Below are positions 24,988-59,283 of a stretch of DNA of 64,000 nucleotides, piece by piece. Source of the DNA: Amoebophrya sp. A120 (lineage: Eukaryota > Protista > Dinoflagellata); contig CAJINV010000001.1 of NCBI GenBank assembly GCA_905178155.1, positions 13,429,712 through 13,493,711 on the forward strand, in the 5' to 3' direction. Position numbers and translations under genes: made by a program. Position 1 is the first letter of the stretch; each line of letters opens with the position of its first letter. Below the pieces are notes generated by a model, which was given only the letters and a program-made list of their open reading frames with translations, was not told where the DNA came from and did no database searches.

Positions 24988-28166
<3,179 letters not shown>

Positions 28167-33845: not shown

Positions 33846-35672
33846 TTATCCGCTCTGCTTCTTATTCGACCCCGGTGGCGGCAGGGGGCTGTTCCGAGTC
33901 GTGGTGGGAGTTGCAGCGGACGCGGAGGACGTCGCCGAGCCACTTTTTCTCTTCGGACTGGGACTGCTTGCGGGTTTTTTCTTGTAGGTGCGTGGTTTCT
34001 GCTGCATGGTGTCCCTCCACTCGTGGAAAGCGTCCCACAGGGAGGCCGAGTAACTGCCCATGCGCAGGGAGTTCATCACTTTGAACTCCTCCCGGAATTG
34101 AAAGTTCTCTTCAAACCCAATTTGCAGCGTGAACTCCGCGCGGTTCAGAGGCGACTGGGCGGGTGGGGACTTGGGCTCTACCTCCTTCAAGTTCGGAAAC
34201 GGTTCCGGCTTTTCCGGAATCGCAGGCCATCCTGTGGAAAACAAAACCTGCTTTGTGCAATGAAAGCAACTCTCTGTACAAAGAATGGGCTCTACTACAC
34301 AGCGGCGCATCAAGGCGGCACCTCGAACCCAACTCCAAGTCAGTAAGTCGCGATAGCAAAATTCACTTCTGCTGCCCCGAGACAACATTTCATGTTCGTT
34401 TTCGCATACTCACTTGAAGGATAATTATCTGTGTAGATATTCATTCAGCTGCCTGGGAATTGACCAAAACGAGCATGCTAGTAGTTGCTTTCCGTGGCAA
34501 ACCCATTGAAATACGAGGGCTTGAAGCAGCTGCAGCTGAACATGCAAGACTTGTTGCATTGAAATCTAGTACTTTCGCACAACTTCAGGTTAATGTCACA
34601 CAGGATACGAGCAGGGGCTTCGCTACCGGAAGGCGCTCCAGTACATCTACATCGAGGGCGTCCTCCGGCCGCTTTTGTTCCTATCAGGTGGTACAACATC
34701 CCCTCCCTCCAGACGAAGAAATACTGCCCGGACAACTCACAGTCATGCTTCTGCAAAAAAAAAGAGCGTCGCCATGTATTCTAGCATAAAGCTGCACTTA
34801 TCGGACCACGACAAATGACGGAGGAGGGGAGTTGTAGTATATGATATTTGCCGCACGGCGACCGGCAGTGGAGGGCTGCAAGAAAGTGCGAGTTGTAATA
34901 AGTTGGAGTTGGGACAAACGGAATACTTATCTTTCTTTTCCCAAACATGTTCGCCCCTCCAACTTTGGAGCAAGAAGACTGAAATTGTTCATTATGCATC
35001 GCATCATAAAAGAGGCACCCTTTTTGAATGTAAACAAATAATGCATGGTACTCTGGCTGAAATTTTCTGTCGTATTTTTCTTCCATTTTCTCCTGCTTGT
35101 GCGAAGCCAGTGTGCGCTCGAGGTTCTGGATCTTTCGCACCAGCTGCTTCTTCTCTTTCTGCCACTGCGCACGCTCCAATTCGTGTCGCTGGATCGGTAT
35201 TTTCGGTTGCATTTCACTATCTTTCTAAAACAAAAGCGAAAACTTGCATGTCTTGAATACTAGCGCGCAACTACGATTTGTTTCTATGCGCGTTGCGTGA
35301 CGACTCAACCTGTTTGTTGAATAAAATAGATGTCATGATATACCTTTTTCTCTTGTGCTTCATCCTGCGCTTGTCGGTACTGCTCCACACTCCGCTGCTT
35401 GACGATCGTATCCCAGGAAAAAAGTGTTACAATTACACATTTGTAGTCAATTCAGCAACGCAAATTTCTCTGCATGAGAGAGAAAACTTGCAATACAGAT
35501 ATCCTAGGGGAAAACATCTATGAAACGAGGCTTCTATGCGTATCCGGCATGACAGAGCTGGTCTGTCTTGCTTGGCCTGCAACACAATGTGTAACTGTAT
35601 CACTTTTGCCTTGCGATAGATCGGCGGAGTCGGAGGTGGCTCCGTGACCGACTCCAGCACGGGTGGCCACAT
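33846..35672 (-). CDS. Probable multi-exon hypothetical coiled-coil protein; exon structure only partly resolved
   Basis: Removing element 35409-35618 plus a GT..AG intron can link ...PTPPIVKQRSVEQYRQ... to the coiled-coil ORF 34781-35212. Protein-like terminal exon at 34231-33846; the middle exons are unresolved. Confidence 0.35.
35409..35618. mobile_element. IR-DR introner/MITE-like element (family C), 210 bp, 5-bp TSD GATCG
   Basis: Left end tatcccaggaaaaaagtgttacaattacacatt; reverse complement of right end tatcgcaaggcaaaagtgatacagttacacatt. GATCG at 35404-35408 and 35619-35623. Confidence 0.85.
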
Positions 35673-37523
35673 TCGCGGCACAAGCAGTCGCTTCTTGTTT
35701 TCTCTTTATCCTCTGCGTCTATTGCTCTTTAAAAAAAACACACGGGTACAATCATCGTCATTACCTGCAATGAAGTTGCTTGGATTTGAGATACTAATGA
35801 ATGTGATACAGTGCTGAAGAAGTAAATGAACTTCGTAGAATAGAAGACTATCCACAACTGCGCTGACAGACAAGTGACCCAATTTAGGTGCACCGAGCCG
35901 CGAACGATCTTTTCTTTTAGTCTTCATCCAGCGATGGAAAGAACAAGACGAATCCACGTTGATACGACCCACGATTTTCATTTTCAAAGGTGCTGCTGAA
36001 GAGACTGTACAACTAACAAACACAGTTCACGACCCGGATACTTGATGAGAAAATTGCACGTAACGAACCGCGACAAGAATCTAGGCACGTGAGCAGAATT
36101 TTTCTCTTTGCACAAATACAGACGACAAGAAAACTACACACACAACCGAAAGAGATGCAGTTGATTTTTCTGTGAACTTGACAACTAAAATGACATGGCG
36201 CAGCCCGGTCGCACCACACTTTTGCACACAATCCGTTGTGTACGGAAAGCACCGATAAAAAACACCGACTCACTCCATCAGGATTTTTCAAGCGCCGAGT
36301 GTAGGTAGAACGCTCGCGATATGACCAGAGACTTCTCCCGTTGCTACTGGCGTTGAATGTTGTTTTTTGCCTTTGCAGCTTATCTTGCGCATTGCGAAAT
36401 GCCAGAGCGAGAGTTTTTTATTCAGTACAGCTAAAGACATAGAATCTTTTCAAACGTAGCATCCGCTCTGTGAAATATCTGTTCCTCGCAAAACCGCCGC
36501 ATCAAGCACGAGTGAATCACGCTCGGTTGTCTTGCTCGTACGGACACGGAGAGCCTCCGGGAAAGAAACAAGAGTCCTGCTTCGCCCTCGACGGGTCCAA
36601 GTTCAGTGGACGGCAAACCGATCGCCTCGCACGGGCCGCTCTCTGTGCTGCGAGGCACTGAGGAGGAGGACCACTCCTGCCGTCGCCCCCGAATTTTGTT
36701 ATGATTTGGAGCCGACTGCCATTTCTCTCCGTCCGTGGTGGGTGCGTCGGGTCGATCGTCTCGTCTTGTGCGGTCGCATGTATTTTCCTGCCTGCAGAGG
36801 AGCACTTTCTTGCTGGTCGCAAGTAGGCGGACTCGCTTTATTCATCCCCTGTGGCGGCGTTGTCGTATGAATTTGCCATTTACTTCTGCTCGGTCGTCCG
36901 CGCGAACCTGCGCTTCAACTCGTCCGCCTACTGCGTGCCGACTCGCTCCTTGGGTGTCGCGTGATCGTGGCCGTCCCATGGCTGCGAAGTAAGTAGTCCC
37001 ATCATTTCCAAGAACCCGAACACTAGCTACTTCATACGTCGAACTCTGTTTCCTAGTAGCTGGTAAACACCACACATGAAACACCACGATGAGCAAACCG
37101 GCCAGGTCCGTCCGCGGTCGTTCCCTTAGTGGCCAAGGCGACCTGCCGAACGAGGTTGATCGGAAATGCAGACCAGTTGCAAAAGCGCCGACCACGAAGA
37201 GCTGCAAGGGGACCGCCTCTAGGGGAAGAAGTGCTGTTCTTTAGGACGCTTGTTCATTCGGTTTCTTGTCGTTGTCTCGATTTGCCTGCAAGCCGCGTTC
37301 GTAGATCTTCTCTTTCACGCAAACACCGACCAGCGGTATCGTGTTCAAAAAGTGCACCACTTCGCGAAAAATCCGAGGCCAAGGTCGGTTTTGCCACTCG
37401 TCGATGATGAGCGGCCTAAAGAAGGATTTCGTAGGAAGGCAGTTGAGTGATTTTTGCGTCAAAGTACATAATTTTTGTGTAGTTGAGGACAGACTGTAGT
37501 TGACGCACACTCCGTTCGACCGA

Positions 37524-39105
37524 TCAGACATGACAGCTGCGGAGACAGTTGAAAAACATATCCCGTACGCCAGGACACATTGGCGGGGCACCTGAGGTAC
37601 GACAAGTCCAAAATTGGATCGAGTAGAACTACTAGCTACGGAAGCCATTTCGTTTCGTGTGTATCGGTTGCACACCTCAAAAAGTAGTACAGTTTCACCA
37701 CTAACCCGAATCATATTGATGTATTTGTACCTTGTCCGTAGGGGCGCATGGCTCCGCCGGCCATCGGGATTTTCGCAAGCCTCACACCGTGGATATCCGG
37801 CGTATCCAGCGAAATCTCACCCGTAGAAACCAATTGCGCAATTTCACGCCCGATCTCGCGAAAAAAGGGCTCCACGTTTGCACCTGGAAAGTTTCGATTT
37901 TCGGATAGGTGAAGATTTTCATAAAACGAAATGGCTTGGCCCTCCAAACCGGACAAAGGTCAAACTCTGTTAAATCATCCTTCACTCAGAAACATTTACA
38001 TTTCTGAAAATTTTCAAGGAAAATAAATACCGCTATAGGCGCTGGTCTCGACGTACTTCATATTGGCAGCCGATGCGTAGTCCCTGGCTTCGGATTCTGA
38101 CACTTGTCGGCCGGGGGTGTGCGACACGATCGAGTCCGAGTTAGCCAGGTCCACCTTGTTTCCGACTAGCACTTGGATCAGCATCCGGTTCTGCCTGCCA
38201 CAGGTCTCATGGATCTCCCGCAGCCAACTAGAAAGCCGCGTGAAGGAGCCTCGGTCACAGAGGTCGAAGGCGAAAATAACGGCGGTCGCTTATGGAAACG
38301 AAAAACTCCCTCGTCCCAATATTCTTTTCTTCAAAAGGGCGCTCTTTCAAAAATCCGACACAGCGCGTCTGTTGCTGAATTAGCGTACACGACAATAAAT
38401 CAGCTTTGGCTTGCTGCAAGAGCAGAGTGGAGGCATTTTCTGTGCCTGTTTAGCTCTCCTGCAGAGGACCTCTTTGCACAAGAAGAAACAAACCTTCGCG
38501 GATGCAAAATGGTCTTCGTTTTCCCTGTTTGCAATTTGTGGTCGCAAAGCAACATCACAAGTTTCGCTTTTGGCTACGGGGAGGGAGTGTTTTTCCTCAA
38601 GATATCGCCCCCTTGAACAATTCCTTCTGCAACGCACGCATCGAGGGCCCACCGCCGACGTCGGTCAGAACCATGTGTATCTGCAAGAATTATTTATGCG
38701 CAATCGGTTACTTTTTGAGTGTTTACTATGGTTATGAATGAGCGACGTACATGATCGGCTTCATGTGTTATCTGGTGCCTACAACCACCCACTCGCTCCC
38801 ACAACAGATCGAACTGCGGTTGCAATGAATCATGACCTCTGCGAACGGAGGAAGAATTACTGGTGAAGAAAACGAAAAAAACACGTATTTGCGTAAAAAG
38901 TTTTTACCCTTCTTTTCCTGCCGAACTCGGAGTCCACATCGAAGTGCCAGACATTCGTTTGATGCCCGATCGTGATGTCCTGCGTCCCTGCGCTTTTGTG
39001 AATCAATCTTGATACCAGCGAACTTTTGCCCACGCCCGCCTCCCCGACCACGAGCACCCGCACCTCAATCGGCGCTGCATCAGACAAAGATGCGGAGGCA
39101 GCCAT
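37524..39105 (-). CDS. Divergent Rab-family small GTPase, ~249 aa; exons 39105-38908, 38680-38608, 38288-38031, 37883-37731, 37591-37524
   Basis: G1 GEAGVGKSS, switch I TIG, G3 DVGGG, G4 GNKVD, G5 ETSA, RQVSESEA. Intron 2 is non-canonical; the last exon is tentative. Confidence 0.85.
38291..38604. mobile_element. IR-DR introner (family B) forming non-canonical Rab intron 2, 314 bp, TSD TCGCT/TCGCC
   Basis: Ends tatggaaacgaaaaactccctc and gagggagtgtttttcctcaagata. Removing 319 nt restores ELFKGATAVIFAFD. Confidence 0.85.
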
Positions 39106-39721
39106 GTTTTACGAAGTTTCTGCTTCTTGATGTTCCAGGTATGGTAAAAAACTACGTGAAAACAAGTCCAAATCGCACTCGCTCTCCGAAAAAAAAAACT
39201 ACCCACTCGACGTCAATTGTCTCCTGCGCAGGTGTGTGAGAGGAAAGGTTTACGATCTGGGATCGACGGCTATATCCCTTTGGGTCCTTGATGGTTGTTT
39301 GGAGAAAAAACGAGGACGTAGAGGACGTGCTAACAGGTAAAGGACGACCGTATCTGTAAGTCTTGTTGGAATGGCAACCTCTAAGTGATTACGGACGATT
39401 GGTGCAATCTCTCAGATTCAACGCAGAAATGAAAATACCGAGAAAGAGGTATACAAATCTTTCCTACTTTGCAGCATGCACGACTCCCGGACGTACGACT
39501 TGTTAAACGAACACATATGTCTGTTTGGAAAAAACGTTTCTGCGCTTTGGGGTCAGTCGGAAAAATTTATGATGGTGTACGCTATCTGTCCAAACACGTC
39601 TTCTAGACGCTGGCGAGTGCCGAACGACAACACGATGTTAGATCTGCGCACAGCGCAGGGAACAGAGACGAGTAGAGTGGCGCGTCGCCGCTCATATTTC
39701 ACAGCATCAGCCGTTATCTCC

Positions 39722-42517
39722 TTATTCAAAAATTCGTCCGTGAAGAGCTACCCGCGCGAACAAGGTCATCCAGAGTACGTAGAGCGCGCCAAAGAGGAAC
39801 ATGTGCGGGCCTTTGATGACGATAGTACCATCCGGCCTGGAGGCTAGCACGACCGTGACGATGTAAAACACAAACACGTTAAGGAGCTGCGACTTGGCCG
39901 CCAAACGCACCAGGTAGTCGTGTCGCCCGATCTCCACGGGCTCGCCGCCGACGAGCACGGCCACCAGCCAGGAGCAGCCGAGTCCCAGACAAATGTTGGC
40001 GATCTGCGACCCAACGCAGGCGGAAACCGCCATGGACCCGAGTCCGCGCTTCGCCACCGTCACCGAATTAATGGTGTCCGGAATCTCCGCGCCGACTGCC
40101 ACCAGACAGAGGCCGAAAAACGCCATCAAGCTGGGGACCTGCAACGCGTCCACCCAGTCACAAGAAACGTCGGTGACAATGTAGGAGAAAAAACTGATCC
40201 AAGAGAAGGACACAAAGAACGTCACGGCGTAATACCGTTCGTGCACCTCTCCGGCGCGGCAGTCCGGACAGGTCACCCGCAGACCGAATTCCACGGGAAG
40301 CAGGCACAGGTGCAAGCCCTTCCGAATCCTGCTGGCGGCGGTCGACGGGGGCGCACCCGGACCTAAGCAACACACTCCTTTCCAACACCGACTGCTGGCC
40401 ACGTAGTTGCGCCACCTCCTCACACAACACCGGCGCGTTCGTCTGAAACCTCTGACGCATCTCCTCGACAGAACAAGCACGCATGTCCGTAACCTCCGCG
40501 TGGGGGCACTGTAGTTGACGTCTTCTGCATTTATTTCTTCGTAATTGTAGAAAAGGTCGCTGTCGACGTCATCAATTAGGTCCTCTTCTTCTGCGTCGTC
40601 GAATCGCAAAATGGCAGCTTCACGAGCACTTCCAGTCGACCCGGTGTGCTGACTTTCGGGCGAAAGCGGGCTGGCCTGTGCCGCTGGTGCGCCACAAACC
40701 GGGCGATCGTAGATGGCGGCATACTTATCGTCTACCATGAGGCTATAGTCCGTCGCATTTCTCGTACCGCTGGGAGCCGTCGCCTTTTGCGACCGAGGGG
40801 GTGTTGACCCCGAACCTGTTCCGTCGGTCGAAGCTGGAGCGGGTAACTGCCGCGTCGTGCTAGGCGAAATAAGCGCTTCGGTCACGGACGCGGTGGTCGA
40901 AGAATCCGAGCCAATGGAGAGAAACGAACTCAGCACCTCGGGGACAGACGCAGAGTACGATGAAGAAGCAGGTGCACCAACATCCGCACTACTTCTTGTG
41001 AACGTGCTGTCAACCACCTGAATATGATCTTGATGCTGAGCAGAGCCGCCGGGATCTAAGCCGGGTCTGCTACTGCTCGCGAGCTGGCTGAGCTCCGTCT
41101 CCTCCACACTGATAAAACCCACCTGCCGTGGCTCCGAACTGGTACCCGTGTCGTCCTCGCCGCGCAGGAACTGACGCCGCGCCCGCACCAGCATACCGAG
41201 GTAGGACACGTACAGGAGCAAGAGCGACACGGCGGAAAAACACGAGGCTTCGCGCTCATGTAGGGCGTAGTTCAACACAAGCAAAGCGGCCGCGTAAAAA
41301 AACACGTCGCGCCGCAGTACCCCGCGCTTTAGGAACAGGGCCCGTGGTGCGTTCGCCTCCCGCTTCGGGGCGAACCACACGCAAAGCGTCGGAATGAGCA
41401 GAAACGCAATGAACCCCGACCCCAGAATGCCACCAACGCCGAGGTCGGCCGGGGACGCAATGTCCTCGCCGAAGGCCGATTCCTTCGTGAGTGCGCGTGT
41501 TGTTCTCGGTAGACTCAGATATGTCACATCGTTACTTCGTTGATGCTCCGTCTGGTCCTGTGCGCTTCGATAGGTGGAGATTGCGTTCACGGTAATTTCC
41601 GGGATTGCGGAGCCAAACGCCATGAAGCTGGCCCCGGCGACATCCTCCGGGACCTTGTTCCGCGTGCACAGCGTTTCCATCGAGTTGCACAAGTGGTCCG
41701 CGGCTAGAGCCAGGCCCACGAAAGCGTAGGCGAAAAACACCAGCTGCAGGGAACGCCGGAAAAAGATCGCTCCGGTTTCGTTCGAGAGCCACTGGGATGG
41801 GTGAAAGACGCCGCTTTCTGTTGCGGAGGCTGCTTCCACGTGCACCGCCGGGGCAGCAGAACTCGAGGATGCAGGGGAATCATTGGGTTCCCGAGTACCA
41901 GAACTTCCTTCGACATCTTCCTCATGCGTCTTTACTTCAGCACCCGTTGGTGGAGCCGTGTCAGACGGGGGCTGTTCGTCTGTTCTCGTGCCTGTTGACA
42001 GTAACGCAGGTGGTCTCAGTGTGGTCGTGGCTTGTTCTTCAGTCTTCGGAGCAGGTCCGCCTGTGGTTGCTCCACTGACGGCGGGATCTTCCACGACCTC
42101 CTTGTTACCACCCTCCCTTCTGGAGGTGAGAGCATGCGTTTTCGGTATGCTGGTTGTTTCATCCCTCTCGTCCCGATCATCGTCCTGCGACAGGGACGGC
42201 AGATCCTGCGCGGAAACGCCTGCGGAGTTGGCGGACTGCCAATGCTCACTAGGCTCCTCGGATTGACCACTGGTCGAGGCAGATTCAACACGACCGGACG
42301 AGCTCGTTGTTCCATTTTGATATTGATTTTCAAAAGTCGTATTGTTCAACTTCTGCAGCGGAAAAAGAGATGGCAATAACGCTGTCGCAGCCGTCGCTTC
42401 AGAAGAGAAAGACTTAGAACTTCTTATCCGATCTGCGGAACTTTTTATGGGTACTAGCGCAAGTCGGAAGAAGATTAGGACTACTGCTCTACAGGAAGCC
42501 AATCTCGATAAAGTCAT
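39722..42517 (-). CDS. Ca2+/cation antiporter, NCKX/SLC24-like, 931 aa, intronless
   Basis: Alpha-1 repeat DVAGASFMAFGSAIPE; alpha-2 repeat GLCLVAVGAEIPDTINSVTVAKRGLGSMAVSACVGSQIANICLGLG; signal-like N-terminus; two TM clusters separated by a large loop. Confidence 0.9.
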   Translation of the reverse strand: MTLSRLASCRAVVLIFFRLALVPIKSSADRIRSSKSFSSEATAATALLPSLFPLQKLNNTTFENQYQNGTTSSSGRVESASTSGQSEEPSEHWQSANSAGVSAQDLPSLSQDDDRDERDETTSIPKTHALTSRREGGNKEVVEDPAVSGATTGGPAPKTEEQATTTLRPPALLSTGTRTDEQPPSDTAPPTGAEVKTHEEDVEGSSGTREPNDSPASSSSAAPAVHVEAASATESGVFHPSQWLSNETGAIFFRRSLQLVFFAYAFVGLALAADHLCNSMETLCTRNKVPEDVAGASFMAFGSAIPEITVNAISTYRSAQDQTEHQRSNDVTYLSLPRTTRALTKESAFGEDIASPADLGVGGILGSGFIAFLLIPTLCVWFAPKREANAPRALFLKRGVLRRDVFFYAAALLVLNYALHEREASCFSAVSLLLLYVSYLGMLVRARRQFLRGEDDTGTSSEPRQVGFISVEETELSQLASSSRPGLDPGGSAQHQDHIQVVDSTFTRSSADVGAPASSSYSASVPEVLSSFLSIGSDSSTTASVTEALISPSTTRQLPAPASTDGTGSGSTPPRSQKATAPSGTRNATDYSLMVDDKYAAIYDRPVCGAPAAQASPLSPESQHTGSTGSAREAAILRFDDAEEEDLIDDVDSDLFYNYEEINAEDVNYSAPTRRLRTCVLVLSRRCVRGFRRTRRCCVRRWRNYVASSRCWKGVCCLGPGAPPSTAASRIRKGLHLCLLPVEFGLRVTCPDCRAGEVHERYYAVTFFVSFSWISFFSYIVTDVSCDWVDALQVPSLMAFFGLCLVAVGAEIPDTINSVTVAKRGLGSMAVSACVGSQIANICLGLGCSWLVAVLVGGEPVEIGRHDYLVRLAAKSQLLNVFVFYIVTVVLASRPDGTIVIKGPHMFLFGALYVLWMTLFARVALHGRIFE

Positions 42518-43148
42518 CCTTTCCTATTCTCCGACAGCTACAGCTGCATCTTTTCATCTACTTACATCAAAGCACCAGCCTGCAGCTACCCCGCACTATC
42601 ATTTTAAGCGAAACGCACATGGATCGCGTCACTACCATCAGGCAGAAAGTTCAGAAAGGGACTGTTCGACAAGGAAACTTTGTAATCGACCGAGAGAGAC
42701 TCTTATTGGTTCCTGCGAAAAATGATTGTCAAGAAAAAAATTTTTCCGACCTGAGAACACGCTTCTCGAAGGTCTACTTGAACATCTTCCTGCTTTGTGT
42801 TTTTTTTTCCGAACCTTCCATTTCTATCAAAATTTTAGCGCAAATCACTCGATGTCCGCCATCCTGGTCGCTACCACTCAGGGTCCCGACCCGCGTATCA
42901 TGGTCAGTTTCAACACAAAAATTTTCGGTACTGTAGCCCGCGCCTCATGCGACAGGCCATGCGCATCGGATAGTACGGATGTTGCTCGTGTTCCTGTGCA
43001 AATAAAACTGCGGTGACTGCAAGCATCCTCTCGCTAATGCGACGACCTGCGCGCCCTTGGACCGAAAACTCATGCTTTTGTGGCCATCGCTCGCAGAGGC
43101 TCTGCGGCGCCACGTTTTCGCAGTAGCGTTTCCCGGGACTATGTCTTG

Positions 43149-44346
43149 CTATGCGAAGTTCAACTGCGCCTGAAGTTCTGCTAGCTGGGCCTCCTCGTCT
43201 GCAGCAAGATTTGCACTGGCGGCGGGCTGATTTGAAGAAAGACGGACGCTTGTACATCAAACAGACATGAAAAGAAAACACGTTTGCAACCTGCTGTAGA
43301 GAGCGCTGCGGTAGTTAGTAAATTGTACCTTTGCTGATGCGGGTGCTGCGGTTGCCGCTGCTGGTTGCGAGGATGAAGGTATCGTTTTCGCGTTTAAGAG
43401 GTCTTCTTCGAGTAGCTGGGCGGATAGCTGGTCCAGCTCCTCGTCTAGGTCCATATCGCCCCCAATTTGGTCCGCATCTGAGCAATGATAGAGATACAAG
43501 CTGGGGAACAAGGTCATTTTCACGTTAGAACCAAACGCAAACGACAACACAGCAGTTACCACACTTTTCTCATGCAGGAAAAAAATCACTATACTCTGCG
43601 CAAACAGGTCCGACACTTCGTTGCTGAAATCGTTCTGCTCTGCAAGATCGTCGAAAAGCTGCTCCACCTGAGTTTGAGATAAACAATAACAACAAAAATC
43701 CCAGTCTTCTGGTGAATTACGTCCCATGCTATGGAATTCCGGCGCGCCTGCAGAAATATCGAAATGTCTTCAACTGCGTGAATCATAAGCGACAACGCAG
43801 AGTACCTTGTCGGCATTCATATCTTGCGCTATCTTTTTCTGCATCGCAAGCCCTTGTTCCATGGCTCGCACTGCCGTCATATTGGTTGTCGCGTTTTCTA
43901 GCTGCCTGTGATAGAAATTTTTTGAGAGATGGATGCAAAAAAGAAAAAGAACTTTTTTTACAAAACTGCTTGATCTGGTCGTCGTCGATACAAAGTCGAT
44001 ACATGTTCTCCCGGAAAAACACTGATTGTGAAGGGTAAAAGTGATGAAGAAAAGAGTACAGGCATTGATTTTCCAGGGTGAGTATCTGGTTGTCAATCTG
44101 CTGTGCGTTTTTGGTCAACGCCTGCTTGCGCAGCAGGGCCATTTTGGCCCCGTTTTTGTCCTTTTTTCTGACCTTGTCCCGTACACTCTCTTCAAGCTCC
44201 GCTACTTGTGCGTCCATGTATTTTCTCCTCTTCTCGAGCGCTTCGATATCCCCCCGCAATCTCTTGATCGTGTCTGCTGCCTCGGCCCCCAAGCTCTTTG
44301 CCGGCTTCTCCTCCTTTTTCTTCTTGCTTCCGAAGAACAGATTCAT
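43149..44346 (-). CDS. SNF7: ESCRT-III subunit Snf7/Vps32/CHMP4, ~228 aa; exons 44346-44060, 43905-43806, 43667-43595, 43477-43329, 43226-43149
   Basis: MNLFFGSKKK, IKRLRGDIEALEKRRKY, AKMALLRKQ, TLENQ.LQLENA, LDEELDQL and C-terminal DEEAQLAELQAQL. Four GT..AG introns give a 687-nt CDS. Confidence 0.88.
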
Positions 44347-48500: not shown

Positions 48501-50105
48501 CTCAGCTCGTTCTCCAAGTATTTCCGGAGCGCCATCTCCAGTAAGCGTGCCTTCTTGCGTTGTCGACACGCCAGGGTAGCTGCAGCTGAATGTGAATTTG
48601 TGAAAACCACCGTCACAGCCCACGTAGAGCTCCAAAGAAGAGGCTTCATTTGCGGCGCGCTCCAAAAAGCAGAAGCGGCCCGGTGCGGTCAAACTGAAAG
48701 TCCGCAGGCACGTACAACCCCTCCAGACCTTCACGGTCTGGTCTTCGGAAGCAGTTACCGTCAGAAAATCATCCTGGAAGATTGCAGCAAAGCGGCGGTC
48801 GCTCTTGGAACCATCGTTGTTCATCTTTGCCCTACTTCTACTTCCACCGATGTCAAACGTCCGGACGCATGTCACTCTGCCACCGTGGCCGGTCAGCTGC
48901 CCGAGCAGCCGCCAACGGCTCCTCGTCACATCAGTCGCTGTTGTAGCGTCATTTCCCTCCTCCGTAAGTTTTATTCCCGTTGAATCTTCATCAGAGTCTT
49001 CCCCCCAAATGCGCACACTGCGGTCGTCGGACGCCGACAAAACCACCCTGCCGTCCAGCTCCGGAACCGCGTGAACGTCCAAAATCGCCGCGTTCGGGTG
49101 GCTCCCGACCTCTGCTGGGCGCGCGTTTCCGCTTCGTCGACACACCGTGAATATCTTGCCAAACGGGCCGCCGCAGAAAGGCTTCGGATTTTTCTTGCCG
49201 GAAGTAGAGAATCCTCCTGTACTTTTGACCATTGCTCCTCCGCCTCTTTCAGCAGTGCTGGTCTCTGGCACAAACACGACGTCCGCGGCATAGGAGACCG
49301 AGTGAGAAACGACGTCTGCGGCCTCGTGACGCGGGGACGCTTCATCTTTCCGGAACCGCCATGACCCACGAGAGGCTTCGCACACGGATTGTTGTACTTC
49401 AGGGACGACTTCCACAATGAACTTTTTTATCGAGCCCAATGCGGTGATGACGATAAGTCGAAACAGGTCGCTGCCGCCAGGACGACTTCTACCGCTGCTG
49501 CTGCATAAGTCGAGTTCACAATGCAGAATCCATTCTTCCTTCCCCAAAACGTGCAATGCGCTTCGATGCGCATCCACGTCGACGTGACCACATCTGGTGG
49601 AAAGCAGAGTCGCTGCACCGCTCGAGGACGAGGAAGATGAGGGCGTCTTCGCGCTAGGCGCTGATGCTGATGTACGATAACTCAAGAGAGAGTTACTTCG
49701 CATCGCCTCGTCACTTCGAAGTGTCACACCCTTGAGTGCAATCCGGTCCTCACCCCAAGAAAGCAACACAGTCCGTTGATGAGCCCCTTCTTGCGCATCC
49801 TGTTTCTCTGTGGAGCTGTTGACACCAGCTCCGTACGAAAAAAGCTGCACCCCATGGGCAATTGTTCCTGTCGATGGCTCCTGCCGGTCGCACTCGAAGG
49901 TGCAGCCGTCTTTCGTTTCACTAGCGTTGCCGAGTACTTGCGGCGCAACGCCCAGAAAGCTCCCCGTGTCCTTTTCAAAGAAGTGCACGTCTGGGCCCAT
50001 GGAAACACACTGCACTTTCCTTCCGGAGACGCATCCGGACGCGCCGGCAAGGCAAGGGCCACGGAAACCCTGACTCACGAGGCTAACCCGCTCAGCCTGG
50101 GCCAT
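45570..50105 (-). CDS. WD40-repeat protein, WDR6/Trm734-like (tRNA 2'-O-methyltransferase partner), 1511 aa, intronless
   Basis: WD repeats SASDDRSVRIW, GHGGRVTCV, TASEDQTVKVW, TAGWDRVVRVY; WDR6-like AGFTAGDFV..VNCGGARRAF motif. Confidence 0.7.
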   Translation of the reverse strand: MAQAERVSLVSQGFRGPCLAGASGCVSGRKVQCVSMGPDVHFFEKDTGSFLGVAPQVLGNASETKDGCTFECDRQEPSTGTIAHGVQLFSYGAGVNSSTEKQDAQEGAHQRTVLLSWGEDRIALKGVTLRSDEAMRSNSLLSYRTSASAPSAKTPSSSSSSSGAATLLSTRCGHVDVDAHRSALHVLGKEEWILHCELDLCSSSGRSRPGGSDLFRLIVITALGSIKKFIVEVVPEVQQSVCEASRGSWRFRKDEASPRHEAADVVSHSVSYAADVVFVPETSTAERGGGAMVKSTGGFSTSGKKNPKPFCGGPFGKIFTVCRRSGNARPAEVGSHPNAAILDVHAVPELDGRVVLSASDDRSVRIWGEDSDEDSTGIKLTEEGNDATTATDVTRSRWRLLGQLTGHGGRVTCVRTFDIGGSRSRAKMNNDGSKSDRRFAAIFQDDFLTVTASEDQTVKVWRGCTCLRTFSLTAPGRFCFLERAANEASSLELYVGCDGGFHKFTFSCSYPGVSTTQEGTLTGDGAPEILGERAEPCTDLLFSIPDDCTRTQDASRTCTKQKDWVRDIVRLGDTSAYLVATNYGRLFCVNRSPTVCSRSLSTGAETREDNPSDAYEMLNLPHLASSLNKQPEDRSASTDGGKVQQFDPSAGTARDGTEVQHPEEGPRPRMQCTKICDMRIPAASCGNDGDQFVVFAGTACGRICSFNSPAGVEMNIEKRPFSEVDSARTMQVAACPFPQKGRVVNLWPFSRPLAATGCDETGGEIKHFLVAAAASAIAVYEIRVGDGEPSVSNPGGDPSTLSLLWQQPQLKVQACCLVECVNVESQGKPALVFVFGDDQGRMRFFEYSTGAQLFEQGNAHAGKILSLHRDKSRAGSFYSLGADSTVAQWRVSCRNEFIVSDSSTTASSSSADGKRNPVFSLEKVFWYKSSQISHLYFHDAAGGSCVEGEQEQKEPLLAGFTAGDFVMVSGYQGDELVKVNCGGARRAFCISSEEFVYTQQDAVYVKKIPKVNTFSQKLLNAGVGKEVLALACPRRSMIARSSSATSQNSNPSEEDVLFSGGEENVLAVHTFRESGESDYGAEQREEHVFHSEQNSVKPMSFSSCDTEIFHRQASAVKCMCCAEQQQTESSSNGGRRSFLVTGSAHGELKVFDATAAPYTLKFHKVLAQDRLLAIDARVDGENLLRFATTTSSGVVLFGTLFLTGTTARLGRLSRLEIPGTGVGMAVALLRQPTMRKNMDEDGGIVKMHQTARRVEPQVELHEAGQPAASFAVGCTDGGVYLFDGRMNKWDRDSFKFLPGSVNAVCAVTIMKAEAPENSTENQTPLIAAACDDGMCYILRPFFEKQDGDVFAHATNKAAWPEQPAVEIANTRGHISACALKCVAYDEPRQLLVTAGWDRVVRVYCCREMLQSYRCSSSSATVGKAHNRSSSVKPLTLVASSRTSVTEIQALCILESRRDDAGTTSVVVAGRGMEKLKIIVEIVPNSCDATEKQAKTTQRVADATACGAAGGA

Positions 50106-51248
50106 TTTGGTGACGGAACTACAGGGCTATCACCACACACCGCGAACAAGCTTCGATCGAGTAACAAGGCAGAACTAAGTAGGCGATATCTAGCACATGG
50201 TTCTCTACTGCGATGGAATAGGAGAATAGCCGTAGTACTAGATTATTATGGACAAGCAGCAAGTACAACACCGGAGAAGCATTAGAAATAGGTGTAAGTG
50301 CTTCTCGAGAAGCCGCACAACAGCCATCCACCTCGGCCGCGTACTGGTATATGTCGCTGTATTTTTCGACTTCTATCAATCATGCAGTTCTTCGGATCAC
50401 AAGACTTAGATCGTGGCCTCCGCTTGTGACCTTGTTTTTGCATGATCTTGTTGAGGATCGGACTTTTAGCGCTGTCGGTGCACCGAGCCTTTCCTGGATC
50501 TCAAAGAGCCTTTTTCAGGAGCTACATTTCTATTTCTTGGAATTGGATCACAGCAGATGCCCGATCATTGAGAACCTCTAACCATTTCCTTGCACCACAT
50601 TCTGTTCCTCCTCTGCAAATGCGAACCACAAAATTGCGCATACTTAAGATGGCAGCTACTTTCCCGGGTTAAAGCTTGACAGAATGAAAGGGAAACTTAA
50701 ACTTTTCCTTTTGTGAAAACCAACTTTGGAATACTGAAAAACATGCATGCAATGGTTTTACGATTTGCACTTGATGTCCAGCAAGTTGTCTGCAGAGCCA
50801 AGAACTAAGGTACAATCATTTTCTGAAATTCGCCGCAGTCGCGTTATTCTCAAAGTAATGCTATCAATTTAGGAAAAATTGGGTTTGCTGTTTTGCAGTG
50901 ATGAAAGAGGTTATATTGTAAAAGTCTTGGAGCACGCGCGAACCTCCAAAGGATTGCAGGCCTCATATTTCAACATGGACATGGGTATGCATTTTTTGAG
51001 CTGGTGAATGGTGTTCGATGCTACCTTTTTTATCTGAAAACTTCTTACTCGCCTCGTTCTTATTGATTCCTAAAGTTCTCAATGAATTCTGCGAACAAGC
51101 TCTTTGTTCTCAAATTGAAATTGACTTCGAATTTTACATTTGTTGAGAGGCGAGAATTTGAATTTCCGATGGTATCCAGGGTCGCGCAGAGCATGGCCGG
51201 AGCATCCAATCTTTGTTTGGCTTTGGCGCGGCATCTGCACTGCGTCAA

Positions 51249-54200
51249 TTACTCGGCTTTTTTCTTTTCTCCGCGAAGCCCGAAAATTTTTGGCGTTCCA
51301 GCGGGCGTGACTTGCAGGGCCTGCAGTGCCTTCATCAACGGACTCAGGAGGCCGTCCGTGTTCTCTTTGTTTTGCTCATCTTGATCGTTATCCTCCTCGG
51401 CATAGAGGCTTTCCGGGCTGTCTAGCGTGTTTGCAATCACAGGGTCGCAAGAAGATTGCGTACAGCCCTCGGTCTGGTCCGCGGCAGAAGAAATATCGCT
51501 CCCCAAACTCGCTGGCCTGGTCGTTCGCGAGGTCGTTCCCTCACCGATGAAGGCGCAGCGGCCACTCGGCGTGCCGTCCAAAGACGACGGCGCTAGCGAG
51601 TCCGTCCCAACGGGGCTTGGATTTGTTCCGAGGATTGCGGAAAGCCCGGCTGATGCCCACTCCGTAGTTCGAAGATCCACGTACTCCTGCTGGGTTCCCA
51701 TCTGGGATCGATAGTACCCACACGACGATGTTGACCCCACCCCGGCGTTTACATTTTCTACAGGCACTAAGAGGCGCACACCGGACAGCGCAAACTTGTA
51801 CCGTTCCGTTGCTTCGTCCCAATACAAATCGAACACAGCGGAACCGAGGTTCTCGTGCATCGATTTCTTCCGCGCGGCCTGCTCGGATTCTTCCGTCCTC
51901 AACGTCCACTCATCGGAGGTACAGCAATCCTTATCCTGATCAGCGTGTTGCCGCCCGTTACTATCAGGATTGCAATTAGATGCTGTTCCGTCCCACGAAA
52001 CGCCTCCGGCATCTTCCTCTTCGCCACCCACCGATTCTGCATGCATCGTGGCGAACTGGGAGCAAATTCTCGGAAGTTGCTTCTCTCTGGACGATGTGTC
52101 TGAGGTCGTCCACAAGAATCCCGTCCTGCTTCCCCGGCCGCACGCACAGCATCGCCTTCGCAACCGCTGCAATGCGGAAGCCGATGCTGTTTGATCATCT
52201 CCGACTGTCGTCGAAAATCTCATTCCAAAGCCGGGTCCTCGCACTAAACGATCTTCACCTTCGTCTTCGTCGACCATCACGCTGAGCTCTTGCATCTTCA
52301 ACAGCCCGGCGTTCTCGGGGATAGTCATGCTGTTTGGTGTAGAAGTACCCCCACCAGCCGAGCCTATCAAAATGGAAAATCCCCCCACCCCATATCAAAA
52401 CGGAAATTTGTGATGCTGATTTGGGGCCACAAATCAACTTTGTATTGCAGAGAGGCATTGCGGCCAGATCCCCAGGCTAGGTAGAGGCGCATGTGTCTAG
52501 CTGTTCAGCATGGCAAACGACTCCCCTTCAGGCCCACCAGCATGGCAAATCGCTTCCATAATGGGGCGGAAGCTTCTGCGCTTGTCTTCTTGCAAGACAG
52601 ATGTGATTTGTGACCTCAAATCCGCAACACAAATCTTTGGAAGCATACTTTTTCAATATGGGGAGGGGGGATTTTTCCTCTCAATAGAGCCGCCTTGCTT
52701 GCCACTTCCGTACAATTTGTTCCCCGACCGCGCATATCAAAAGTAAAAATGTCTGGGTCTGGAAGAATGCGCGATTTATCATGCAGCTTTTCCATGACCC
52801 ATGAGGTCCGGAATACAGGACCTAGCATGACAGATTCTGTGCGATCTTTCTCATGCCTATCCTGCATGAGAAACTGCCTCCCGACTCGGTCAAAACTGGG
52901 CGACTTTTGGTAATCATGCAACACAGATTTTTGCATGCTTCAGACTTAGCATGACAAGTTGCATTCTTCCAGACCCAGACATTTTTACATTTGATAGCCC
53001 AAGCGGTGAGAGCAAAATTTGCTTCGACGCGTCGGACAGCATCTCGTCGGAAGAAGAGGACTCGTCGTCATCCTGGGCGTAAAACAAGTCCGCGTGGTTG
53101 TTTGTTCTGCCCGCCGCGTAGTAAAAATGCATCCCGATCGCAACATGCAGTTCTTGCGAGGCACTTGATCTTCGGCCTGAAGATGACACAACAGCAACTC
53201 TGCTGTCGGCACCAAACACGAAAGGGCCCGCTGAAATGGTTGAGCTGGCGCTGGAGCTCTGTCGTTCGAATTGGCCAGCAAGAGGAGTAGAATCGTGGTC
53301 TCTACGATTGGAGGACCCTTGTTGGCTCGGACTGCCGTCGGGCGACGTCGTCCGACTGGCTGTAAACACCGTTGTTGGGTTAATGTCTGCTTTTTTATCC
53401 GTCGACGACTTTGCAGAAGATGTGGTTTCGTCAGAAGTAGAGCGTCGATTATATTTCGCTAGGTCCAGAACGACCAAATCCTCAGCCGCAAAGACGACAA
53501 GGTCGCTGACGGCACCACGAGAGAAATCAAACCTGTGTGCCTGCAGGGTCGGCTCTTGGATCAGTTCTCCCTCACGCTGCAGCATCGTGTCCCAAAGAAA
53601 AGCACTAACGTCATCTTTGGACGCGACTTGGAGCTTCGACCCGGCAACGATTGTCAGGCTCTTCGCGGGCCCGCGCGAGGAGCAGATATTTCTTCTTCTC
53701 GGCGAGGACCCTCGATGAGAGCTAGCCCGGCTGTGCGCTGGATTGTGCTTTGTGCCGGAATTGGTGCAACCCCGTGCTGTATTTATTTTACCGTGCTTTG
53801 ATTGGTTATTTCGGTGCTGCGCACCATCAGCAGATCCCGAGATATACTGAACAACGCTCTGCCACGGAGAACCAAAGACCGAGGAAGAAGAGGTTGAAGA
53901 CCCGTGCCGTACCTCCGCCTCGCACCTACTATTGTCGGATAGTTTTTTTCCACTTGCAGACGCAGATTCGGACACCAGCACACGACCATCCCTATTCAAT
54001 TCCAGTGCAGTTGTGTCTACCCCGACACAGTACGCAGAAGTAAGCAGCAGCGACGGGCCCACGATGACCCCGGTACATTCGTGACTCCGCGAGTAGAACC
54101 GCTGTCCCTGTACGAGCACCACCGATTTGGCCATGTCACCCACCAGCTGCTTCGTCGGGTCCGGACCCATCATGTGCAGTGACCCCATTTTGAAACGAAA

Positions 54201-54326
54201 CTCATCAACGGTTTTTGCAGCAGAGGCAAAAATCTGGGTGCGATCGTCGGGGAAGAGCAGCTGGTGTGGGCCGGCGAGACCTGCAACCCAGCGGAGCAGC
54301 AGTCCGGTGAGCGAAAAGAACTTCAT
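51249..54326 (-). CDS. Secreted trypsin-fold (S1) pseudoprotease, ~827 aa; exons 54326-52997, 52729-52691, 52363-51249
   Basis: Signal-like MKFFSLTGLLLRWVAGLAG; HECTGVIVGPSLLLTSAYCV, DLVVLDL, NLGSAVF, FALSGV, CGY..YVDLR..W. The frame is restored by removing two introners (2484-nt CDS). Confidence 0.65.
52365..52686. mobile_element. IR-DR introner (family B), 322 bp, 5-bp TSD GAGCC; can be read as a GC..AG intron 52364-52690
   Basis: Left end tatcaaaatggaaaatccccccaccccatatcaaaa; reverse complement of right end tattgagaggaaaaatcccccctccccatattgaaaa. Confidence 0.88.
52735..52996. mobile_element. IR-DR introner (family A), 262 bp, 36-bp TIR with one mismatch, TSD GCGCA/GCCCA
   Basis: tatcaaa(a/t)gtaaaaatgtctgggtctggaagaatgc at both ends in inverted orientation; central hairpin tttctcatgc..gcatgagaaa. 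Confidence 0.92.
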
Positions 54327-55806
54327 CCTGTTCGCACAAAGGAGAAGCGGTGCAGTTGTTTGTGGCAACAAGCTTCACATGCAGCCTCCAATCGGCTTTA
54401 TCAGTTCCTGTGAGTTGTGCCACTGCACTTAGTACTTATTTTCGCGAGGACTGGCTCCTTGTGGTTGTATTCTCTAAGATTGTTCGCGACAAAAAAATTG
54501 AACGGAGCCTGTTCCCGAAATTGAAAAGCGAACGGCAAGAATTTTCGCAGCACAGTAAACGCCACCTCAATGCAAGTTATCGCCGGTCCGTTGGATCAAC
54601 ATCGCCCGATTTCGAATTTCAAAGAACTACTTCGCCTCGCTGACCTGGGCTCGCGACCACTTGGAGGCAGCAAGCTGGATTCGACTCTTTTGCAGAGGGA
54701 ACGAAAGCTCGGATCCTTGTGACGATCACAGCTGCGTGCCAGGAACAAAGCGCCGCTGCATCCTAGAAAACCAAAACTGTCGAAGAAGAAAACATTAGAC
54801 AGGGTTTTCGTTTTCTGTTTGGGTTTTTCAAATTTTTTGCTAGCGAGGATCTTCCGCTAAAACGACACAGGTGATTTTTGCAAGCTCTCTCTGTTGCGAA
54901 GGGCTTCCTTTGAAGCCCCTTTCCGCAGCAAATTCTTCGTACTGTCAAAATAACGCAGCACTTCCTTCCTATTCATCCCAAAACCATGGTACATTTCTCT
55001 AGCCCTGGACGAGGCTCGTGGTGCTGCAATTTCAGTACTAAAAGGTGCTTCCTTGAGTTCATCGTTTAGTACTGAATCAAATTCGGAAAAGAAAACGGGA
55101 AAGGCTAATTAATACTTGCTTGGAAACAATTTGCTTGTGTCGGCAAAACACAACACCTCAAATTTCTTTGTCGCAGAAATTCTGCCGTTGGCGGTGAAAA
55201 GTCAAGATGCACAGTGAAGTTACTTTTGCAAGTAATCGTGTATTTGATGATGTAGTGAAACCATAAATGATCGATAGATCTTCTGTATCAAGTACTAGCA
55301 GCAACCGTCTATGGTTATACGGCGCACTGGGTGCTTAGTGCATATTAATGCTACGATAGGAGGCTGCCTCGATTGCTGTTGTTGAAAAAAAGTTTTCATC
55401 TAGTTCCAAAATTTATCAGCTCTTCCCCGTTGTGGTGGTACAGCGTAGAGTTTAAGTTCCGCAGATAATTTGGCTTGCTTTGAAACCAAACGACAAGCGA
55501 GAACTTATCACTTACTTTCTCGATCAAACGATACGAAGATCGTATAGAAAATACAACTTTTGAAGTAGTCAAAAACTATTCTCCGACTTTCTTGATGCAA
55601 CTCTTTTAATGCTTTCTTCCAAACTATCATAGGTATAGGAGCTCGTCTGATATTACAACTACTTTAATTAGTTTTTCCTTTTGCTAAGACTCCTGCTCCG
55701 TACGTCGGCATCGAAACTTCATGGTACGATGAACAAAATCACAGCGACAAACAATAGCGAAATTTTCAGATGACCTTCCCAATTCCGTCGCTAATACCTA
55801 GCCCAT

Positions 55807-58800
55807 TTACTCGTGGAACTCTTCCGCCTCCAGGAACTCTTCCTCCTCGCGCGCGGTCTCGGTGTGCTCCATCGGAATCTGTTCCATCTGCAAAAAGTTG
55901 TTGTACAGCTCCTGACTGCTCGTGGGCTCACTAATATCCTCGCTCTCCTCCTCGGCCTTGTCCGCACAACTGGCCGCGCCCCCGCCAGCCCCCGCACTTT
56001 GGGTCGTCGACGTTGGTTCCTCTGCAGACAATCGTGTACAACTACCCTGTTCCCGTTCAGCGTCGTGGGCCGCCTGCTCCGCGAGCGGCACCCGCTCGAT
56101 CCAGTACCCTTTGTTCAGCTTCACGATCCGGCACACCTTCTGCAGATCCGGGCGCCGCATCAGATCGAGCAGCTTCGTCTCGTGGAACACGGTTTCGGAC
56201 AGAATCTTCTGGAAGACCGACCGAATCTTGATTTTCACCACGGACAAGTTGAATCCGGTCGGCGACGCCTCGAGCAGGACGCTGATGTACCGCTGCAGCT
56301 CGGCCATGGTTTGCACGTACATGTCCGGGTTCTCGCAATGCGCGGCACCGGCGGCGCCCGCAAGCGTGCCGTCGGCGTTCGAAACATCACCACCTCCCTC
56401 GGCCCCCGCATGGTCCCCGCCACCGAGAAGCGGCCCGGGGTAGGAGATCGCGTTGGGCGCCCCGACGAGGGCGTTCTTGAAGGAGCAGCAGGCGGACACC
56501 GGAAGCAGCATCGAGTTCTCGTACGCCAGCACCTTGCGCTGGATGGCGCGCTCGACGATGTGGCAGGTTTCGCCGATGGTGTACCCCTGAAGAAAGTCCA
56601 GAGTGCGGTTCTGCAGCTCCTGCGCCATGCCGTAGCGGCCGCGGTGGAAACAGATGTCGCCCGGCATTTCCTTCAAGCGCTTCTCCAGGTACTCGGTCAG
56701 CGCCGGCCACAGCTCGTCCGGGTACGACTCCTCGGGAGAGTTGGGGTCGATCCAGCCCCGGAACCCCAGCGACACGCGGGTAAACTGCACGTTGGGGCAC
56801 TCGTCGACGTTGTAGTAGTCGGGCTTCTCCGCACTGTCGTCCTCCTCGGTCTCGTCCTTCTCCCACTGCACGATGTACCCCGGCATGGCGTCGTAAAACG
56901 TCAAGAACTGGCCCAGCAGCATCTCGCGCGCCCCATACTGCTGCAGGCGGGCCTTCAGCACCTTTTCCCCCGGGAAAATCCGGTCGTCGTACAGACTCTG
57001 CAGCGCGTCCGACATGATCGAAATCTCGTCGCGCGTGAGGATGTACACCGTCGTGTCCGGCTCATCGGTCGTCGTCAACTGGGTCGACATCCGCGGGTCG
57101 CGCTCCGGAGGGGGAGCAGTCGTGCTGGTTGCACTACCAGCAGCTGCGGTTATCGTTTCGTCCGTGCTTTTTGTCGGTCCCAGAGCTCCTGCAGAAGTGC
57201 TTCCCCCCTTCGGCAGCGCCGGCGCAGTGGTGACGCAGAAGCACAGCAGCCCGGAGTTGAGCTGCTTGCCCGCGAGCGACGGCTGGCGCGGGTTGGCGGT
57301 GGGCTTTCCGTCCTTGCCCCACTTGCCCCGGCCCTTCGCGCCGCTGGTCTGGTCCCGGTAGGCCGCGCGGACGCGCGCGGACTTGATGCCGGTCCACCAG
57401 TTCTTGCTCTGCTGGCCGTTCTGGCTCTGCATTTGCTGGAAGTGCCCGAAGTTCTCCAGCGTCAGTTTCGCGTTCGTCTTCGTGCCCGAGTAGGTGCGGA
57501 GCAGGTCGCCGAGCAGACTTTCCATCTTCGAATCCTTCCCCATCTTCCCGCCGGCTGTCCGTTCGCTCGGGGTGGGGGGCGCCGGCGGCCGCAGGGACGA
57601 GGACCCCCGGGCGGTGTAGTCGGGCGAGTGGTCGTCGCGAATGTGCCCCGAGCTGTCCCATTCCGGGACGTTTTCCGATCCCCCTTCCAGCTGAGACTCG
57701 TCGTCCGGCGACCGTGCGTACGCCGCCGATCCGTAGTTGATTTGCGGGTCGTAGGGGTCCAAATACGCTTGTTTCCCGTACCTCGGCTGATCCGCACCGG
57801 TGTAGATATCCGCTCCCTTGTAGTACTGGTGCTGGTGGACGGCAGCCCCCTTCTTTCCGTGTTTGCTGCTCCCGTAGTGATCGAAATTCTGTTGGTCCTG
57901 CATCAGATCGCCTTTGCCGCTGTCCTTGCTGTAGCTCCAGTCCTGGTGGTAATAATGCCCACCACCGGCGCCCTTGTACACGCCGCTATTTTTGTCCTTG
58001 TACGATCCTTTTGGAGGAAAAGCTCCTTTCATGCCGCCCTTGTAATGACCACCTGGAGGTGCAGCTCCGCCATACTCTTCTTCGTACTGGAACGCGCCCT
58101 TCTTGTTCATCGACTGCTTCCCTCCTCCGGGATATTGTTGATAGGGCACCGCACTATTGCCGCCCTTCCCGGGATTGATCAAGCTGCCCGCCTTTTTGTA
58201 CTTACCATACTTTCCTTGACGAATCACACCGCCCTTGTACGTCGAGCCGTGGTGCGGCGGGCCGTAGTACGGCGGAGGCGCGCCCCCTTTCATCGGCGGC
58301 GCGTGCTCCGGGCCGGACAGGATGGAAAAGTCTTGGAAGTTGTCCTGGTTGTCAAACATTTCCAAGTGGTCCCGGCTGGTGTCGTGGATCGCGGAAACAT
58401 CCGCGCTCATCACGTGATACCCGCTGTTCTGCATGTTGTGAAACGAGTTCTGCTCGTGCCCGTAGTTGTCCGGATGGTGGGGATCCAGATTACCGTGCGG
58501 GTGCGCCGTGGGGTGTTCCACCTGCTGGTAGTAGTAATTGTCAGCCGGAGGAGGTGGACCACCCTGAGGACCACGATGATGCTGCGCCGGGTCCTGATGT
58601 GCTGGTCCGACATGATGACTGTTTGTCCCCGGCGGAACACCACTACCCGGGTGCGGCACGCCGGCCGGACCCGCGCCCCCGGGCGCCCAGGTGCCCGCAA
58701 AACTGGTCGCGCCGGTGGTCACCGAACCGCCGTTGGAGGTGCTGAACGTCCGCCCGGATGCCGCGGTCGAGGGCGGGCCTGGATGGCTGTGACTGGCGTG

Positions 58801-59283
58801 GTTCAGCATCCCATGGTGGGTTCCCGCGGGCTTGTCGACAAACATGCCATGATCGGAGGAAGTCGGAGGCCCCTGCTCGCTCGGCAGACCGAAATCCATG
58901 TGGCTAGCGGCATTGATCGCGTCGAAAAAACTGCTCGTATGGATTGTAAAAACGATCTGGGTCTGGGTCTGGAAGGTTGGAACTTGTAATGCTAGCTTTC
59001 CATACCTAGAAAATCTGTATTGCATAACCAACAAAAGTCGCAGTCCTTTTTGTCATGCAAAAACGCAGTTTCTCATGCGGATTGCCTATGAGAAAGCGTT
59101 TTGGGAAGTTGTCATGCCGGACTGCATTCAGAAAGTCTTCATCATGCACATTTTAGCATCACAAGTTTCCAGACCCAGACATTTTTGCATTTCATAGCTC
59201 GGAATGGCGTCCAACTCGTTGTCCTCGCCGGAAAGGGCCGAGCTCTCCTCCACATCCAGCTCGGGCACGGCCACCGTCGTCAT
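55807..59283 (-). CDS. OST-HTH-associated (OHA) plus LOTUS/OST-HTH domain protein with a His/Gly/Pro/Tyr-rich disordered N-terminus, ~1070 aa; exons 59283-59197, 58932-55807
   Basis: Motifs LQSLYDDRIFP, GWIDPNSPEESYPDELW, RGRYGMAQEL, GETCHIVERAI, LSETVFHETKLLDLM are typical of myzozoan OHA/LOTUS proteins. Exon 1 joins in frame after introner removal. Confidence 0.78.
58938..59196. mobile_element. IR-DR introner (family A), 259 bp, perfect 5-bp TSD GCTCG
   Basis: Ends tatggattgtaaaaacgatctgggtctgggtctggaa and ttccagacccagacatttttgcatttcata. Removing 264 nt gives DAIPS|SFFDAIN in frame. Confidence 0.92.

Follow-up and report, generated by a model that had tools for sequence, protein, structure and literature searches.

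The closest described system is that of the introners of Amoebophrya sp. A120, in which Farhat 2021 (PMC7789003) counted 29,850 repeated introns. In the available text of that paper, these repeats begin with TAT, after which come seven nucleotides of lower conservation and then at least three A residues, and they are bordered by direct repeats of 3 to 5 nt, given as 5 bp in the legend to Fig. S19. The same text reports that U1 snRNA was undetected in A120 and that no transposase was found there, and it argues against a general transposase-mediated mobilization. Gozashti 2025 (PMC12130899), in the portions consulted, assigns most A120 families (58 A120 rows) to TIR DNA elements without a superfamily. 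Row 580 of its supplement file 8 lists A120 family 38 as "Ginger, 5-bp TSD, TA/TA termini," and its passages on this family state that it lacks Ginger homology, termini, and TSDs. No later papers on the mechanism of A120 introners were found in the literature searched, subscription papers lying outside it.

Here we analyze a 64,000-nt stretch of A120 DNA, referred to as the window, which contains short elements of this kind. They have the same TAT-7-AAA inverted ends, direct repeats, non-canonical splicing, and repeated families as the A120 introners in the published text (PMC7789003), from which they differ in nothing of kind. Family 38 shares the TA/TA termini, 5-bp TSD, and TIRs, as judged from the table description and not from sequence, but is about 810 bp long and has Copia/Gypsy-like ORFs, whereas the window elements are 210 to 380 bp and non-coding. 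Among other DNA transposons, as far as the descriptions at hand go, IS3EU/GingerRoot elements share the TA..TA termini and have an integrase-related DDE enzyme and a target without nucleotide preference, but their TSDs are 6 bp and their TIRs 100 to 150 bp, compared with 5 bp and about 30 bp in the window. Within Ginger2/TDD, TDD-4/5 likewise make 5-bp TSDs, but Ginger ends read TGTNR; IS481EU shares its TNT..AYA ends with the window elements but has TSDs of about 4, 15, or 25 bp. The nonconventional introns of euglenids also have TIR-paired ends, TSD-like repeats, and non-canonical junctions, but they belong to another lineage and are described as having a CAG/CTG end motif and a circular excised form, so that the likeness is one of behavior only.

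Results

Anatomy of the window elements. An initial annotation had described five elements with a shared terminal code, TAT at positions 1 to 3 and AAAA at positions 12 to 15 counted inward, together with a flanking 5-bp duplication. All ten ends and the 5-bp repeats were confirmed, the mismatched pairs being those of E2 and E4. E1 (35409 to 35618; 210 nt, TAT...ATA) is flanked by GATCG at 35404 to 35408 and 35619 to 35623 and has a strict copy of the internal motif TGT(C/G/A)ATGC, discussed below, at 35547. E2 (38291 to 38604; 314 nt; 5-mers TCGCT and TCGCC) is an intron in a minus-strand gene and contains a single loose copy of the motif. E3 (52365 to 52686; 322 nt; GAGCC on both sides; strict motif at 52409) lies 48 nt from E4 (52735 to 52996; 262 nt; GCGCA and GCCCA; strict motif at 52825 and 52949), and both interrupt a minus-strand reading frame (51249 to 54374) for which no Pfam match was found. 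E5 (58938 to 59196; 259 nt; GCTCG on both sides; strict motif at 58985, 59051, 59110, and 59156) is related to E4 and inverted relative to it. Its host is a minus-strand gene (55807 to 59283, start approximate) for a 1070-aa DUF7602/OHA protein, which was 100% identical to the public Amoebophrya sp. A120 protein P0001 over residues 560 to 900, the region searched. A sixth element, E6 (34228 to 34607; 380 nt), overlooked by the initial annotation and found via an RNA joint, is spliced and degenerate, with CAT at its left end, no AAAA at its right end, flanking 5-mers CAGGC and CGAGC, and no internal motif.

The pairing of these ends exceeds chance. TAT-N8-AAAA matched 17 times in the left-type and 10 times in the right-type orientation in the window, forming five pairs with a 5-bp direct repeat, and no paired motif with a 5-mer repeat (at most one mismatch) arose in 300 block-wise dinucleotide shuffles. 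The unpaired matches, 12 left-type and 5 right-type versus about 3.5 and 3.0 in shuffles, had no blastn matches to the element library.

In the window elements the inverted match runs on beyond the A-run, with positions 16 to 30 consisting of family-specific sequence. No LTR-like direct repeats were found at the ends of the five elements, and no poly(A) tail. Being short, with TIRs, a fixed-length TSD, and no coding capacity, they have the features of MITEs, or non-autonomous TIR transposons. E1 and an element in locus L002 share 89.5% identity over 210 nt, and E4 is 94% identical to one in L020. The 10 ends of E1 to E5 all show TAT, 7 nt, and at least three A residues, and the border repeat, the repetition in an A120-type host, and the non-canonical removal from RNA (E2 to E6 in one sample, E1 from depth) complete the set of published A120 features. 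The identification as TAT-initiated Amoebophrya introners is thus upheld, and since the TAT-7-AAA motif is published, the terminal code as first flagged is not new. Ends in strain A25, by comparison, begin with TTA. Relative to the available text of Farhat 2021 (PMC7789003), the internal word, families without an A-run, and a co-variation test are added here.

Removal from RNA. Contig runs X1, X2, and X4 come from one sample of putative RNA type; their behavior is that of RNA, since the contigs skip GT-AG introns and those of X4 show loose ends of poly(T). At E2, an RNA joint at 38285/38605 (X1, X2, and X4) omits 319 nt, which is the 314-nt element plus 5 nt. An X1 contig connects 59197 to 58932 at E5, omitting 264 nt (259 + 5), and P0001 continues across the same junction. 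Over E3 and E4, an X1 contig measures 3104 nt, which equals 3698 - 327 - 267, or the genomic length minus each element and 5 nt; 43 nt of this contig are unplaced between 52997 and 52359, and excision of both elements with 5 nt each yields an open frame of 843 codons. The joint at E6, 34222/34608 (X1 and X4), omits 385 nt (380 + 5) and has a short side of just 29 nt. Exactly the element plus 5 nt is consequently missing from RNA-type contigs at four of the elements E1 to E5 and at E6. E1 also appears to be excised, as contig depth falls to zero at 35418 between flanks of equal depth; its skip joint was not among the 15 of 25 joints listed. The raw RNA reads of X8 and X9 left the host genes uncovered.

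Wherever the two 5-mers differ (E2, E4, and E6), the RNA retains the transcript-upstream copy. This fits a cut 0 to 1 nt before TAT, which is only suggestive with three junctions and an estimated chance probability of about 0.14. A codon-score test for the exonic repeat copy gave 12 versus 18 and did not discriminate. For family 2, the annotated dinucleotides in the Gozashti 2025 tables consulted (PMC12130899; sums made here) are NT at 6681/9716 donors and AN at 6598/9716 acceptors; they show both this register and its mirror and hence do not settle the cut register.

Ends and 5-mers in a larger sample. Scanning another assembly, a public one, for the end word of E4/E5 yielded 149 loci (L001 to L149; about 578 kb unique), a sample biased to the E4/E5 family in which other families are present as bystanders. 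Repetition in the genome was also evident from run X5, where 115 contigs run from 52996 into different flanks; summed contig depth in this run, which is not copy number, was 38,000 to 371,000 over elements and about 45 elsewhere. Elements with TAT..ATA ends that also had a repeat at 16 to 35 and a perfect 5-mer numbered 251, compared with 0 to 2 in offset controls, and family analyses used the 242 remaining after removal of nine of >345 nt. Length peaks were seen at about 109, 150, 210, 252, 262, 279, 306 to 311, and 321 nt, near the A120 family lengths in the published material consulted.

When ends were anchored on positions 16 to 28 alone, TAT was present in 314/344 and TGT in 2/344, with the reservation that the seed needed TAT at one end per locus. 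An exact 5-bp repeat flanked 127 of the 146 TAT/TAT elements anchored in this way, and repeats of 6 to 8 bp flanked none. A TAT-blind search likewise returned TAT with 5 bp as the largest class (233; runner-up, 37). AAAA at 12 to 15 was less constant, occurring in 204/344 anchored ends and in 281/484 ends of the 242 elements; a run of at least three A residues within positions 10 to 15 was present in 440/484, and one family of six members lacks it altogether (0/12 ends). TAT and AAAA had been called invariant, which holds for the 10 ends of E1 to E5 but not for the degenerate E6 or the larger sample, and it was in part circular because the five elements had been chosen by that motif.

The 242 elements carry 182 distinct 5-mers without base bias. 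The GC richness of the 5-mers, noted in the initial annotation, reflects exon composition (57%, versus 55% in the flanks). A G at 5-mer position 2, present in five of the six window elements, failed as a rule in 156 elements. That the 5-mer is arbitrary and varies between copies within a family speaks against its being a recombinase core, a proposal that is largely disfavored. No empty-site allele was encountered; from RNA and reading frames we infer that the 5-mer is target DNA duplicated at insertion, which points to an enzyme making a staggered cut.

Outside this sample, four end patterns gave 0 matches each in viral contigs, and a lone end-word match in a bacterial genome bin (L150:385-412) is probably due to chance.

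Spacer, pairing, and orientation. At positions 4 to 11, the two ends of a window element (E1 to E5) agreed at 22/40 sites. The spacer is accordingly variable, as had been proposed, but it is not free: in the main family (132 elements), positions 6, 8, and 9, together with 11 to 13, are fixed at 97 to 99%. Its variants occur as multi-base blocks of linked positions (G4 with T7, p = 2e-30), of which a part recurs between families, and the variable end positions barely follow interior ancestry. Spacer variants turn over faster than interiors, and exchange of ends between copies is possible.

The co-variation test suggested in the initial annotation showed little co-variation of spacers between the two ends. 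Own-end identity at positions 4 to 10 in the main family was 0.734, versus 0.723 in permutations (p = 0.21), and spacers were identical at both ends in just 28/251 elements. With oriented ends, positions 10 and 14 co-varied weakly in the 262-nt class (n = 77; p = 0.03 over six variable positions), and no co-variation was seen in the 252-nt class (n = 39; p = 0.68). G-U and A-C mismatches were balanced (88 versus 96), revealing no strand bias. These spacer and mismatch figures favor a protein-read site over base pairing, as had been argued, but farther inside the element the ends are predicted to pair: this holds for positions 16 to 28 in 89 of the 90 elements folded, a set chosen for its repeat at those positions, and for positions 1 to 3 in 78/90. 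With such pairing, a hairpin may still serve splicing, and setting protein recognition in place of base pairing, as the initial annotation did, overstates the case.

In 156 exonic-looking elements, the 5' and 3' end logos were alike and GT/AG was absent, and the 262-nt class lay both ways (25:22). Orientation was called by a codon model that was consistent within 33/34 loci; in four window checks, it miscalled E2 and left E6 undecided.

An internal motif common to all families examined. TGT(C/G/A)ATGC, on either strand, was present within 238 of the 242 elements (785 copies) and in all seven groups, compared with about 8 elements in shuffles. Interiors within one class have a median identity of 66%, and between most pairs of families blastn finds no match, though they have this motif in common. 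Of the 14 strict copies in the window, 8 fall in the 1747 element bases, with none in E2 or E6. Copies cluster about 40, 49, 70, 80, and 91 nt from the element end. Helical phasing across families was not significant (best period, 10.3 to 10.4; p = 0.063), one family being out of phase. Paired motif arms do not co-vary, as the variable base agrees in just 9/25. The word TGTCATGC is absent from the supplement text of Farhat 2021 that was available (PMC7789003). Among the papers listed by a full-text search, one concerns Amoebophrya, a different strain, with a single occurrence. The motif is not described in the Amoebophrya introner literature searched, in which figures and subscription papers were not covered, and as we found it in no paper searched, we consider it new. 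Since E2 and E6 are spliced without a strict copy, the motif more likely serves mobility than splicing, a suggestion resting on two elements.

Search for a mobilizing enzyme. As had been stated, the window appears to encode no mobilizing enzyme: no Pfam transposase, integrase, or recombinase match was found in the 96 ORFs scanned out of 164 of at least 120 aa. The same was true of 275 ORFs from the loci (about 578 kb), comprising 125/303 coding-like ORFs and one further frame from L017 (126 together) and 149/607 other ORFs. Long copies encoding a DDE transposase or tyrosine recombinase, which the initial annotation suggested looking for, did not emerge from nine candidates of >340 nt. L017:506-1608 was rejected as an autonomous copy; this TAT element of 1104 nt contains a repetitive, GC-rich insert, whose 238-aa frame has no Pfam match. 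The remaining candidates look like neighboring or nested copies.

Discussion

The elements share a defined anatomy, exist in many related copies, are removed exactly from RNA, lie in genes in both orientations, and have no GT/AG signal. On this evidence, the shared code is TAT, a 5-bp stagger, and the internal 8-mer rather than TAT-N8-AAAA, and the idea of recognition by a protein gains support. What is added here is the 5-mer as a target duplication, the near independence of the ends, and the common internal 8-mer.

Arbitrary target DNA duplicated at a fixed length is a hallmark of a staggered DDE cut. We favor, with moderate confidence, the explanation that A120-type introners of Amoebophrya, a marine parasite, are non-autonomous TIR elements whose movement depends in trans on a DDE enzyme of the integrase type, cutting with a 5-bp stagger. 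Such a transposase would make the staggered cut, with TAT likely marking the end at which the DNA is cleaved. The family-specific repeat at 16 to 30 and the internal TGT(C/G/A)ATGC copies would be bound by this enzyme or by a helper; the A-run and spacer would be variation that is tolerated and not a fixed code. Splicing would probably be guided by end-to-end pairing, possibly with a cut 0 to 1 nt before TAT, so that one duplicate leaves with the element, and it seems to be independent of the internal motif, as removal is exact both for E6, which lacks it, and for E2, where a single loose copy is present. Against this explanation stand the lack of a transposase or integrase Pfam match in the 96 window ORFs and 275 locus ORFs scanned, the case made by Farhat 2021 (PMC7789003) against general transposase-mediated mobilization, the statement of Gozashti 2025 (PMC12130899) that family 38 lacks Ginger features, and the weak own-end co-variation in the 262-nt class. 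The comparison with named superfamilies sets the limits of this proposal. The elements have the TA..TA termini of IS3EU/GingerRoot but not its 6-bp TSD (5 bp in 127/146; 6 bp in 0), and their nearly uniform TAT is not the TGTNR of Ginger1/Ginger2. Since Ginger fails on termini and GingerRoot on TSD length, the claim is that the elements work like these transposons, not that they belong to them. A bolder version, in which one Amoebophrya protein reads helically phased motif arrays and TAT ends and mobilizes all A120 introner families, with splicing by a ruler from the terminal hairpin in either orientation and without GT/AG, strikes us as rather doubtful. If true, the elements would constitute a new group of integrase-related transposons, with TAT ends and a 5-bp stagger. 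The internal 8-mer, being present in all families examined, offers a defined bait, with a mutant control, for finding the protein.

The 5-bp duplication could also arise by an RNA route, with reverse transcription of the excised intron and its insertion by a resident LTR retrotransposon's integrase. Duplications of 5 bp are found in most LTR elements, whose ends the TA..TA termini resemble. Copia/Gypsy-like ORFs are present in A120 family 38 according to the material consulted from Gozashti 2025 (PMC12130899), and a transposase is unreported in A120 in the available text of Farhat 2021 (PMC7789003). However, the window elements have neither LTR-like direct repeats nor a poly(A) tail, positions 4 to 15 show no G-U bias, and the excised intron would carry 5 nt of host DNA, which new copies do not inherit, as the diversity of their 5-mers indicates; we regard this route as unlikely. 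Conservation for splicing rather than mobility, with the terminal and internal words acting as RNA-level signals (a hairpin and a splicing-factor site), would account for the predicted pairing at 16 to 28 and 1 to 3 and for the slight tendency of positions 10 and 14 to co-vary, and it would suit a genome in which, in the text consulted, U1 snRNA was undetected (PMC7789003). Yet E6, whose ends are degenerate and which has no motif, is still removed; exonic-looking, putatively spliced elements include non-TAT ends on either side (6 at the 5' end and 3 at the 3' end); most of the 25 strongest co-varying column pairs are not Watson-Crick; and the paired motif arms disagree at their variable base more often than not, all of which makes this reading improbable.

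Tyrosine recombinase sites generally consist of inverted arms around a short core, a layout that the elements match if the 5-mer is taken as the crossover core. In the tables consulted, one A120 family is auto-labeled CryptonC and another has a Crypton-ends match, but Cryptons are described there as lacking TSDs (PMC12130899). The 5-mer here is arbitrary and differs within a family, yet it is duplicated exactly in 127/146 elements, and no recombinase Pfam match was obtained in the scanned ORFs (96 in the window and 275 in the loci), so we give movement by a tyrosine recombinase very little credence. Our preferred explanation remains mobilization by a DDE enzyme of the integrase type acting in trans.

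Several other features of the window were noted. Nine-nucleotide tandem units arranged in two 62-nt blocks occupy positions 1 to 133, and three diverged tandem copies with a spacing of about 820 nt lie at 637 to 2370, where overlapping scanned ORFs gave no Pfam match. Two adjacent kinesin motor genes were recognized at 27444 to 32429, and the Pfam-matched ORFs of the window (among the 96 of 164 scanned) are all on the minus strand.
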